Assembly (NCBI GenBank): GCA_045544455.1
Contig: JAZPYZ010000022.1
Coordinates: forward strand, 8,819-72,818
Origin: Acutalibacteraceae bacterium
GTDB taxonomy: Bacteria; Bacillota; Clostridia; Oscillospirales; Acutalibacteraceae
Direction of reading: 5' to 3'
Length of the DNA stretch: 64,000 bases
Part shown: positions 54,968 to 55,794 of the stretch, piece by piece
Layout of the letters: the number at the start of each line of letters is the position of its first letter
Position numbering within the stretch: the stretch's first letter is position 1
Position numbers and translations under genes: made by a program
The notes under the pieces: generated by a model
The model's input: the letters and a program-made list of their open reading frames with translations, nothing else
Databases searched by the model: none
What the model was told of the DNA's origin: nothing

Positions 54968-54973
54968 TTCATT

Positions 54974-55012
54974 AAAAAAGCGTCTGACGCTTTTTGCGAC
55001 AGACGCTTTTTT
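54974..55012. terminator. Bidirectional terminator region (flavoprotein gene, plus strand / tRNA transcript, minus strand)
   Basis: aaaaaagcg-tctga-cgcttttt, and the alternative agcgtct...agacgct followed by tttttt. Confidence 0.7.
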
Positions 55013-55150
55013 GGCACCCCCTGCGAGAATCGAACTCACAACGGCCCCTTAGGAGGGGGCTGTTCATACGGCGAAGCCGTATCAAGGTTCTCTCAGCCGT
55101 CCGGGACCCTTTGTCCCGGAGACGGCGTGAGGTTCTTATATCCATTTAAC
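55012..55150 (-). pseudogene. 5'-truncated second copy of tRNA-Arg(CCT), interrupted by a 73-nt structured insert
   Basis: 55012..55064 is identical to 55190..55242 (tRNA positions 23-75), and 55138..55150 is identical to 55243..55255 (positions 10-22). 73 nt (55065..55137) are inserted inside the 3' strand of the D stem. Positions 1-9 (5' acceptor strand) are replaced by unrelated sequence. Confidence 0.75.
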
Positions 55151-55189
55151 GAAACAAGCCGCCCCTCGATGGGCCGGCTTGTTTTCTTT

Positions 55190-55264
55190 TGGCACCCCCT
55201 GCGAGAATCGAACTCACAACGGCCCCTTAGGAGGGGGCTGTTATATCCATTTAACTAAAGGGGC
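55190..55264 (-). tRNA. tRNA-Arg (anticodon CCT, reads AGG)
   Basis: Revcomp is GCCCCTT TA GTTA AATGGATA TAAC A GCCCC CTCCTAA GGGGC CGTT GTGAG TTCGATT CTCGC AGGGGGT G CCA. This is a 75-nt canonical cloverleaf with GG in the D loop, a TTCGATT T loop and an encoded CCA. The acceptor stem has two G-T wobbles. Folded by hand. Confidence 0.85.
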
Positions 55265-55277
55265 GTTTACGCGTATC

Positions 55278-55307
55278 AGTATACCGCAACCCTCTACCGC
55301 TTGTCAA
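55278..55307 (-). promoter_or_regulatory. Promoter for tRNA-Arg
   Basis: Minus strand: TTGACA (revcomp of 55302-55307), 18 nt, TATACT (revcomp of 55278-55283). The -10 box ends 13 nt before tRNA position 1. Confidence 0.55.
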
Positions 55308-55317
55308 TAAACACCGG

Positions 55318-55345
55318 TTGACAAAATAGGCGTTCATGGTATAAT
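55318..55345 (+). promoter_or_regulatory. Promoter for tagD (divergent from the tRNA promoter)
   Basis: TTGACA (55318-55323), 16 nt, TGgTATAAT (55340-55345). Its -35 forms a 7-bp inverted repeat (ttgtcaa/ttgacaa) with the tRNA promoter's -35. Confidence 0.65.
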
Positions 55346-55407
55346 ATTCACGGAATTGCGCGCAGCTTTTTGGGCTGACGCCAAGTTTTGAAAACGAGGT
55401 GACTTTT

Positions 55408-55794
55408 ATGAAACGCGTCATTACCTACGGTACGTTTGACCTGCTTCATTACGGACACATCAACCTGCTTAAACGCGCGAAAGCGCTTGGTGATTATTTG
55501 ATCGTGGTGCTCTCGACCGACGAGTTTAACTGGAACGAGAAACAGAAAAAATGCTATTTCTCGTACGAGAAACGCAAAATGTTGCTCGAAGCGATCCGGT
55601 ACGTCGATCTGGTCATTCCGGAAGAATCGTGGGACCAAAAACGGTCGGACGTCAAAGAATACCACATCGACACCTTCGTCATGGGCGACGATTGGAGAGG
55701 CAAGTTTGATTTCCTGTCCGATCTGTGCGAAGTGGTATATCTCGAGCGTACCCCCGAAATCTCCACCACCCAAATCAAACAGGATCTGAAATGA
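55408..55794 (+). CDS. tagD: Glycerol-3-phosphate cytidylyltransferase
   Basis: ORF 55399..55794. Start moved to ATG 55408 ([25 protein letters not shown]), 5 nt after GAGGTGA. HxGH motif, and RTPEISTT near the C-terminus. Confidence 0.9.

Follow-up and report, generated by a model that had tools for sequence, protein, structure and literature searches.

A tandem copy of tRNA-Arg(CCU), probably a pseudogene split in its D stem by a small mobile element, in an Acutalibacteraceae genome

How does a bacterial tRNA gene come to be followed, after a spacer of 39 nt, by a copy of itself that is interrupted within the D stem by a further 73 nt of highly structured sequence? The question is raised by a locus on the minus strand of the window, by which we mean the whole stretch of 64,000 nucleotides analysed here, from the 1.6-Mb genome of a member of the Acutalibacteraceae. 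The initial annotation offered three answers: a tandem tRNA duplicate hit by a miniature element, the scar of an integrative element that had used the tRNA gene as its attachment site, or a tRNA-derived non-coding RNA gene with a new hairpin domain. We consider the first of these probable. According to this explanation a tRNA-Arg(CCU) gene was duplicated in tandem, and the downstream copy (hereafter the twin) would be a pseudogene whose D stem has been split by a small, non-coding, non-autonomous mobile element. The grounds, set out below, are that the insert belongs to a multi-copy family with a covarying structure, that one member of this family shows a precise presence/absence polymorphism, and that the junction in the D stem recurs in other genomes, the window genome itself having a single copy.

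The tRNA-Arg(CCU) locus

The annotated tRNA-Arg(CCU) gene at 55190..55264 (minus strand, as are all the features of the locus unless otherwise stated) is intact and is called both by ARAGORN and by Rfam (RF00005, 56.7 bits). A promoter-like site, TTGACA-18-TATACT, precedes it at 55278..55307 (11 of 12 matches in a consensus scan). On the plus strand, a perfect TTGACA-16-TATAAT with a TG extension (55318-55347) points away from this tRNA promoter and precedes a cytidylyltransferase-like gene (55399-55794). Across the 1.6 Mb of the genome ARAGORN finds 47 tRNAs, with a single CCU isoacceptor. The neighbours of the locus encode an FMN reductase, a GDSL hydrolase, the cytidylyltransferase, a DUF3048 protein, an iron-type alcohol dehydrogenase (Fe-ADH) and a DeoR regulator, and within about 4 kb there are no integrase, transposase, phage or plasmid genes.

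Downstream of the intact gene comes the 39-nt spacer (55151..55189), which, as annotated, contains a hairpin; this is terminator-like, with 14-nt arms matching at 93% (inverted repeat I2; arms at 55152-55165/55171-55184 in the repeat search). The twin follows. Its positions 10-24 (gttaaatggatataa, at 55136..55150) are those of the working gene and finish with the TAA that serves as the insertion target; the inserted element occupies 55063..55135; and positions 25-75, including CCA, resume at 55012..55062, again 100% identical to the working gene, before a terminator-like hairpin with a T-run (54973..55011; inverted repeat I1, 17 nt at 94%). Two direct repeats define the duplication. D1 is 56 nt long and 100% identical (55009-55064/55187-55242), and spans tRNA positions 25-75 plus 'AAA'; D2, covering part of the D arm (TGGATATAAC in tRNA-Arg(CCU)), is 24 nt long at 88% (55131-55154/55236-55259), and reaches back to tRNA position 6. 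The perfect repetition of positions 10-75 that had been reported is therefore borne out by D1 together with the identical positions 10-24, and so is the 73-nt split of the D stem, which falls between positions 24 and 25, our 55063-55135 being equivalent to the 55065-55137 given earlier once the ambiguity of the flanking AA is allowed for.

The initial annotation also held that the twin lacks the 5' acceptor strand. This strand is certainly not intact, but it is degenerate rather than cleanly absent: the 10 nt ending with G10 of the twin (gcttgtttcg) match tRNA positions 1-10 (gcccctttag) at 6 of 10 places, and in the window the strand has one mismatch and several G.U pairs. To judge from D2 and the sequence itself, the 3' arm and tail of the spacer (55151-55159) are the degenerate remnant of twin positions 1-9. 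Both the homology of D2 back to position 6 and the 6/10 match over positions 1-10 indicate that the second copy was once a whole gene. As it stands, the twin is not called by ARAGORN, and its score of 16.4 bits against RF00005 lies below the gathering threshold of 29 bits, whereas the working gene is readily recognised. For the insert Rfam gave no match, a search of the locus with Rfam 15 at E values up to 10 revealing nothing beyond chance.

The inserted element and its family

The insert had been described as structured, with two hairpins and direct aggttct repeats at 55085 and 55130. The repeat search does find AGGTTCT twice, at those positions, and the 73 nt fold with a predicted energy of -36.2 kcal/mol, compared with a mean of -21.3 for shuffled sequences (z = -4.6; none of 200 shuffles was as good). 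Read along the minus strand, the insert is made up of G-AAC (55132-55135), hairpin 1 (55092-55131, with the arms of its distal stem at 55100-55107/55113-55120), AGAAC (55087-55091), CTTG (55083-55086), hairpin 2 (55066-55082, the second-hairpin arms appearing in the repeat search as an inverted repeat, 55063-55072/55076-55085) and GAA (55063-55065). It is recognised with E = 1.1e-13 by R1, a covariance model built from a 60-sequence alignment of element copies.

This alignment supports a single long bulged hairpin: paired cells make up 87.8%, against 75.4% in shuffles (none of 500 was as high), and two-sided changes are seen in six of the seven pairs of the distal stem. The pair that flanks and closes the AAC/AAC loop is UA in 34 sequences, GC in 19 and CG in three. 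Of the 60 sequences, 48 keep a U.G (T.G) pair that is strand-specific and marks one strand as the folded one. Comparison of copies gives the general layout of a unit as TAA^(G/T/C)AAC - hairpin 1 - AAC - (C/A/G)TTG - hairpin 2 - (A/T)ATAA (here and below, ^ marks a junction), with a longer hairpin-bearing spacer sometimes taking the position of hairpin 2. The core is AACCTCACGCCG-hairpin-CGGCTGAGAGAAC, and the base that follows TAA pairs with the base that follows the second AAC. Hairpin 1 is highly variable, from a 6-bp stem up to the long ACGCCG type found in the window. The units are about 45-80 nt in size, and in nearly all copies the 5' flank ends in TAA, usually as (T)ATAA. For the 3' flank the best pairing partner is the terminal block of the unit, which in many chromosomal copies is TRTGnTATAA, at +64 to +71, and resembles the extended -10 box of Gram-positive bacteria. 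Terminal inverted repeats are absent, the ends (GAACC... as against ...GTAATAA or ...GTATGAA) being non-complementary. The only repeats in the terminal regions of the window element are the direct AGAACCT boxes, and AGAACC precedes each of its two hairpins.

How widely is the element distributed? A comparison of the insert with its own genome and with relatives, which the initial annotation had proposed as a way of recognising a mobile repeat, gave a divided answer: by BLAST and by model R1 the window genome has the one copy, and many copies are present in relatives. By a strict core pattern, 13 of 301 genomes of the same family are carriers, the highest number of copies being 22, and some copies form tandem arrays with a period of about 90 or 126 nt. 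The core occurs in at least 119 GTDB contigs, mostly from Acutalibacteraceae and Oscillospiraceae, and its carriers include Anaeromassilibacillus senegalensis, 'Clostridium' minihomine, Faecalispora and many metagenome-assembled genomes from gut and rumen. With model R1, A. senegalensis has at least 81 copies and two further genomes at least 60 and at least 61, while other small genomes have 1, 1 and 2; related Acutalibacteraceae and Oscillospirales have from 1 to more than 80 each. Four small genomes have no member of the family outside the tRNA-linked site. Elements of the high-copy genera sit at positions that are orthologous across genera; there they are old and stable, and not visibly hopping. 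The genes downstream of chromosomal copies are housekeeping genes of unrelated functions. Elements are more often co-oriented with the downstream gene than not (64 versus 27), which is what would be expected of strand-specific insertion in a Firmicute. Cultured phages and plasmids gave no match to the element, and a search of the literature brought to light nothing relevant to the core strings or the topic. Among 15 related loci, larger relatives of the element included, Rfam recorded nothing at gathering score except an unrelated pemK motif beside one copy.

Some of the chromosomal settings deserve a brief account. Arrays of three to six units lie 100-170 nt upstream of unrelated housekeeping genes in A. 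senegalensis (L035/L126), in 'C.' minihomine (L047/L062) and at L065, L085 and L098; their positions are conserved between genera while copy number varies. In these arrays a TRTGnTATAAT box lies ahead of the first unit and often recurs at the end of a unit, so that with an insertion the downstream gene would regain an extended -10 promoter. A short ORF whose N-terminus (MKATGIVRRIE.CVI) is AbrB/SpoVT-like, and which varies synonymously from genome to genome, runs into the element at L160, L097, L095, L114, L079 and about eight further loci; beyond the element lie first another conserved hairpin (gggcaaacc...ggtttgccc) and then the frame ...PIERIGVKNG..., as though an AbrB-type gene had been split by the element and a second insert. 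A pemK/mazF-type toxin gene at L099, L112, L134, L072 and other loci has one antisense copy in its 5' leader; the copy separates the Rfam pemK motif (RF02913) from the start codon, and part of a second copy, inverted, is close by. The segment is nearly identical across Fimivivens, Robinsoniella and Lachnospiraceae genomes, and is probably a cassette that moves horizontally. Finally, three loci of genome G184 (L025, L038, L046) have other small repeated modules beside their elements, with the same TGTGGTAT(A/C)AT box, a different hairpin (GGACACAGCC...GCTGTGTC) and a T-run; they could be either another family of repeats or small transcription units.

The most direct view of mobility comes from viral contigs. 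A scan of IMG/VR with the 15-mer AGAACCTTGTTACTC yielded 43 contigs, eight of which contain true elements as judged by model R1 and the presence of hairpin 2, the other 35 being chance matches without hairpin 2. In the filled contigs L206, L220, L221, L228 and L234, which are related to one another, the copy lies between a TAA stop codon and the ribosome-binding site of the next gene, with the structure ...CGCAAATAA^GAACC...CGTAATAA^TGAAAGGATG, and the predicted empty junction, ACCCGCAAATAATGAAAGGATG, was found in contigs L246, L247 and L248. When filled and empty contigs are aligned, they differ by a clean indel of 76-77 nt between flanks that are alignable throughout on both sides, and the most divergent relative in the alignment is empty. 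Three of the five filled contigs have AATAA at the left and right junctions alike, and in the other two the right junction is AATCAA; the TAA/AATAA at both junctions can be read as a duplication of 3-5 nt or, equally, as the target together with the terminal bases of the element itself. A second empty site, sought for the L207 group, was not found, so the comparison of filled and empty sites comprises one case. On the chromosome, one site common to two species of the Anaeromassilibacillus group has a single copy in one and about six in the other. The element behaves as mobile DNA, and the presence or absence of one copy is precise.

Insertion of this kind would proceed by a single-strand mechanism like that of IS200/IS605. 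A candidate partner, a Y1 transposase (PF01797), had no match in the window genome or in the three highest-copy genomes (the four together being G000, G316, G188 and G287), control genomes being positive, and was rejected as its presence does not track copy number. Various other identities for the element were considered and set aside. That of an sRNA gene transcribed from an extended -10 box of its own (TRTGnTATAAT) was dropped as the main reading because the promoter-like block, which pairs with the 3' flank, is part of the unit end, and also because the downstream genes are unrelated and a copy is a clean indel in phages. Riboswitches, T-boxes, K-turns, hammerhead and hairpin ribozymes and integron attC sites were discounted on the absence of their defining motifs in a comparison by eye. 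A single-strand promoter of the F-plasmid type, in which the stem would rebuild a -10 duplex, suits neither the chromosomal location of the copies nor their position before housekeeping genes.

The split tRNA gene in other genomes

At least nine genomes, from several genera, have one to three units in the D-stem site (GGATATAA^C) of a spare tRNA-Arg(CCU) gene. The junction TGGATATAA^GAACC... recurs in many genera, and the tRNA-linked copies are always in the sense orientation of the tRNA, although the surroundings take several forms. A layout like that of the window, with a tRNA, a terminator, a twin degenerate at its 5' end and an element at 24/25, is found in L156, L172, L264 and L265. L177 has the same order with the full 5' half kept, the contig ending inside the units, and L263 has a complete twin with three short units; the interrupted copies of L172 and L263 have a near-complete acceptor stem. 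In L120, L188 and L190 the broken copy is upstream (leader, positions 1-24, one to three units and a remnant) and the intact gene follows. In L068/L171, L129, L174, L193 and L197 there is a 5' half with one or more units, the partner being degenerate, differently placed or beyond the end of the contig. Many relatives have a plain single tRNA gene with an identical D arm and no twin.

The near-complete acceptor stems of L172 and L263 could suggest that the 73 nt are an intron and that the second copy is a working, interrupted tRNA gene, an idea to which a highly structured insert at one exact position in many genomes might also lend itself. We consider this extremely improbable. The 5' acceptor strand of the window twin is degenerate, as described above, and Rfam has no intron or ribozyme match for the insert. 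Bacterial tRNA introns sit in the anticodon loop, and 73 nt is far below the size of a group I intron, so that both size and position are out of keeping. Moreover, one to three tandem units may occupy the identical site, and the same element is found in the intergenic DNA of phages and chromosomes.

The most informative of the window-like cases is L156, which comes from a relative at about 40-75% protein identity whose genes map to the same neighbourhood. The tRNAs are identical at 71 of 75 positions and the two parts of the twin at 15/15 and 48/51, with a change in the twin anticodon of L156 from CCT to CTT. The element core is identical at 31 of 31 positions. The distal stem (11/22 identical) and hairpin 2 (12/23) have changed, with pairing kept in both, and the terminators have diverged so far as to be poorly alignable. 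The initial annotation had seen in the perfect identity of the twin in the window a sign of recent origin or of selection. Recent origin is doubtful, in view of the identical architecture in diverged relatives, and gene conversion would seem the better explanation of the identity. At the positions that distinguish the partner tRNAs of different genomes, every twin agrees with its own partner, acceptor and variable-loop variants included, and this points to concerted evolution with the working gene, for which gene conversion is the simplest cause. The same comparisons suggest that the twin is not kept as a tRNA: besides the anticodon change in L156, a T-stem base has been deleted from the twin of L264, and the acceptor of the L265 twin has decayed. 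Hairpin 1 is wholly different between genera and the number of units at the tRNA site ranges from 1 to 3, which suggests turnover at this site.

Might the twin nevertheless be a gene in its own right? It could be a selected chimeric ncRNA gene, encoding a functional structured RNA in which a tRNA-derived scaffold (anticodon arm, T arm and CCA) would provide for stability or processing, the hairpin domain being co-transcribed with tRNA-Arg(CCU) or read through from it. Much of the evidence can be turned in this direction. The covariation supports a fold in single strands, with the U.G pair conserved on the sense strand only; the comparison with L156 shows an unchanged core and altered but still paired hairpins between diverged terminators; the layout persists in several genera, always with the element in the sense orientation of the tRNA; and the four small genomes referred to above have the family nowhere else. 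Against this, the supposed scaffold is not conserved, as the lesions in L156, L264 and L265 show; in one genus the tRNA-derived 3' part of the twin is in decay, and in other genera the 3' part is missing, leaving the 5' half and units. The complete differences in hairpin 1 and the variation in unit number are more like insertion turnover than like one conserved RNA, a copy can be dispensed with in closely related phages, and the genes downstream of chromosomal copies have nothing in common functionally. On the sequences at hand, we regard such an RNA gene as rather unlikely, while noting that the 31/31 core, the compensated hairpins and the persistence of sole copies in small genomes fit selection as well as they fit re-insertion.

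The tRNA-Arg(CCU) gene is evidently visited by other mobile DNA. In L172 (1300-2120) the terminator and split twin are directly preceded by a phage-like element, at whose end lies a piece of tRNA-Arg beginning in the anticodon loop, as at an att-type junction, so two kinds of mobile DNA use the one tRNA locus. Copies of tRNA-Arg(CCU) broken just past the anticodon loop by unrelated sequence were also seen in L197 (1620-1760; ...cctaagg^tcttgctc...) and in the first tRNA-like copy of L009 (...cctaa^acatcgg...). Could the window locus then be an attL/attR scar, with the 73 nt as the remnant of an integrative element? The L172 fragment beside its twin, as an instance of integration at tRNA-Arg(CCU) in this group, and the partial copies in L009 would be in favour of this, the second answer offered by the initial annotation, but it is very improbable. 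Nothing except the 39-nt terminator hairpin separates the two copies of the window, the extra DNA being within the second copy rather than between the two; the homology that extends into the 5' acceptor region implies duplication of the whole gene; the neighbourhood is free of integrase, phage and plasmid genes; the relative at about 40-75% protein identity has the same layout; and the 73 nt belong to a family whose dispersed copies occur also at non-tRNA sites.

A possible mechanism, and known systems compared

We return to tandem duplication followed by insertion, which might have taken place as follows. The upstream copy is the working gene, and the first nine bases of the twin would have degenerated into the terminator hairpin that precedes it. 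The spare copy would then have received an insertion after T22-A23-A24 of its D stem. The element is envisaged as inserting immediately 3' of TAA, usually (T)ATAA, and since each copy finishes in (A/T)ATAA, the end of one copy can serve as the target of the next, giving rise to arrays. The D-stem sequence ATGGATATAA resembles the right end of the element (ATGGTATAA, GTAATAA), and because of this likeness the D stem (TGGATATAA^C) would be a preferred landing site; insertion beside sequences like the right end would explain the arrays, the insertions at -10-like boxes and the tRNA hot spot alike. As the genome has a single working tRNA-Arg(CCU), insertions would survive only in a spare copy. The twin, kept similar to the working gene by gene conversion, would itself lack function.

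A more adventurous version, which we think unlikely, would have the twin selected as a landing pad: the D stem would mimic the right end of minimal, probably single-strand, elements, and the spare, gene-converted copy would absorb insertions or express a hairpin RNA. If true, this would explain why the split twin has survived across several genera of small-genome gut Clostridia as the family's only copy, and would imply an undescribed class of element that moves without a recognisable transposase.

The wider interest of the locus is of several kinds. A very small type of mobile element (about 45-80 nt) with a three-letter target would be a means of finding a new activity that cuts and joins DNA in Clostridia of the gut and rumen and in the phages of these bacteria, and the D stem of a tRNA would be a recurrent insertion hot spot, tolerated solely by means of gene duplication. 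The dozens of copies upstream of housekeeping genes in some genera may reshape promoters. There are also warnings for annotation: tRNA finders skip split copies, and the promoter-like end of the element (TGnTATAA) can seed false calls of promoters or sRNAs.

How does the locus compare with known systems? The duplications that accompany integration at tRNA genes likewise show an intact tRNA followed by a 5'-truncated direct repeat, but in the window no element lies between the repeats, no integrase is present, and the break is in the D stem rather than in the anticodon loop, the T loop or the 3' end. The RtT, or 178-bp, repeats behind tyrT-tyrV of Escherichia coli (RF00391) are similar in that the repeated units downstream of a tRNA gene include part of its own sequence; they differ in having no sequence or Rfam match to this locus, and in that each repeat includes a short 3' piece of tRNA, whereas here a whole second gene copy is split at 24/25 by a dispersed element.

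Among interspersed repeats, bcr1 of the Bacillus cereus group, RUP and BOX of pneumococci and the Correia elements of Neisseria are MITE-like and about 50-150 bp in size; they end in inverted repeats or are built of modular boxes, and duplicate a defined target (TA, TTTAT). Like these, the element is small, non-coding, hairpin-forming, multi-copy, intergenic or promoter-proximal, sometimes tandem, and directed to an A/T-rich target; unlike them, it lacks inverted termini, its AGAACC repeats being direct, and has TAA at its junction. To our knowledge, recurrent landing in the D stem of a tRNA has no counterpart among MITE-like repeats. A classical MITE, as the derivative of a DDE transposon, requires terminal inverted repeats, and these the element does not have.

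The closest parallel is with the non-autonomous derivatives of IS200/IS605 (PATEs, with IS608 as the model). These, too, have no terminal inverted repeats and two subterminal hairpins, insert directly 3' of a short fixed sequence, have a right end that finishes with a similar sequence, and show seamless presence and absence, strand-specific wobble pairs and orientation bias. The differences are that a Y1 transposase is absent from the window genome and from those with the highest copy numbers, that the target (TAA/ATAA) abuts the left hairpin of the element instead of being about 19 nt away, and that the same AGAACC box stands before both hairpins. The element agrees in anatomy and would share the logic of IS200/IS605, but on account of these three differences it would not be placed within that family. 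Small non-autonomous mobile repeats are known as a kind; in combining a TAA target, ends that are not inverted, movement by no known enzyme and a hot spot in the D stem of a tRNA, the element described here appears to be an undescribed variant of them.
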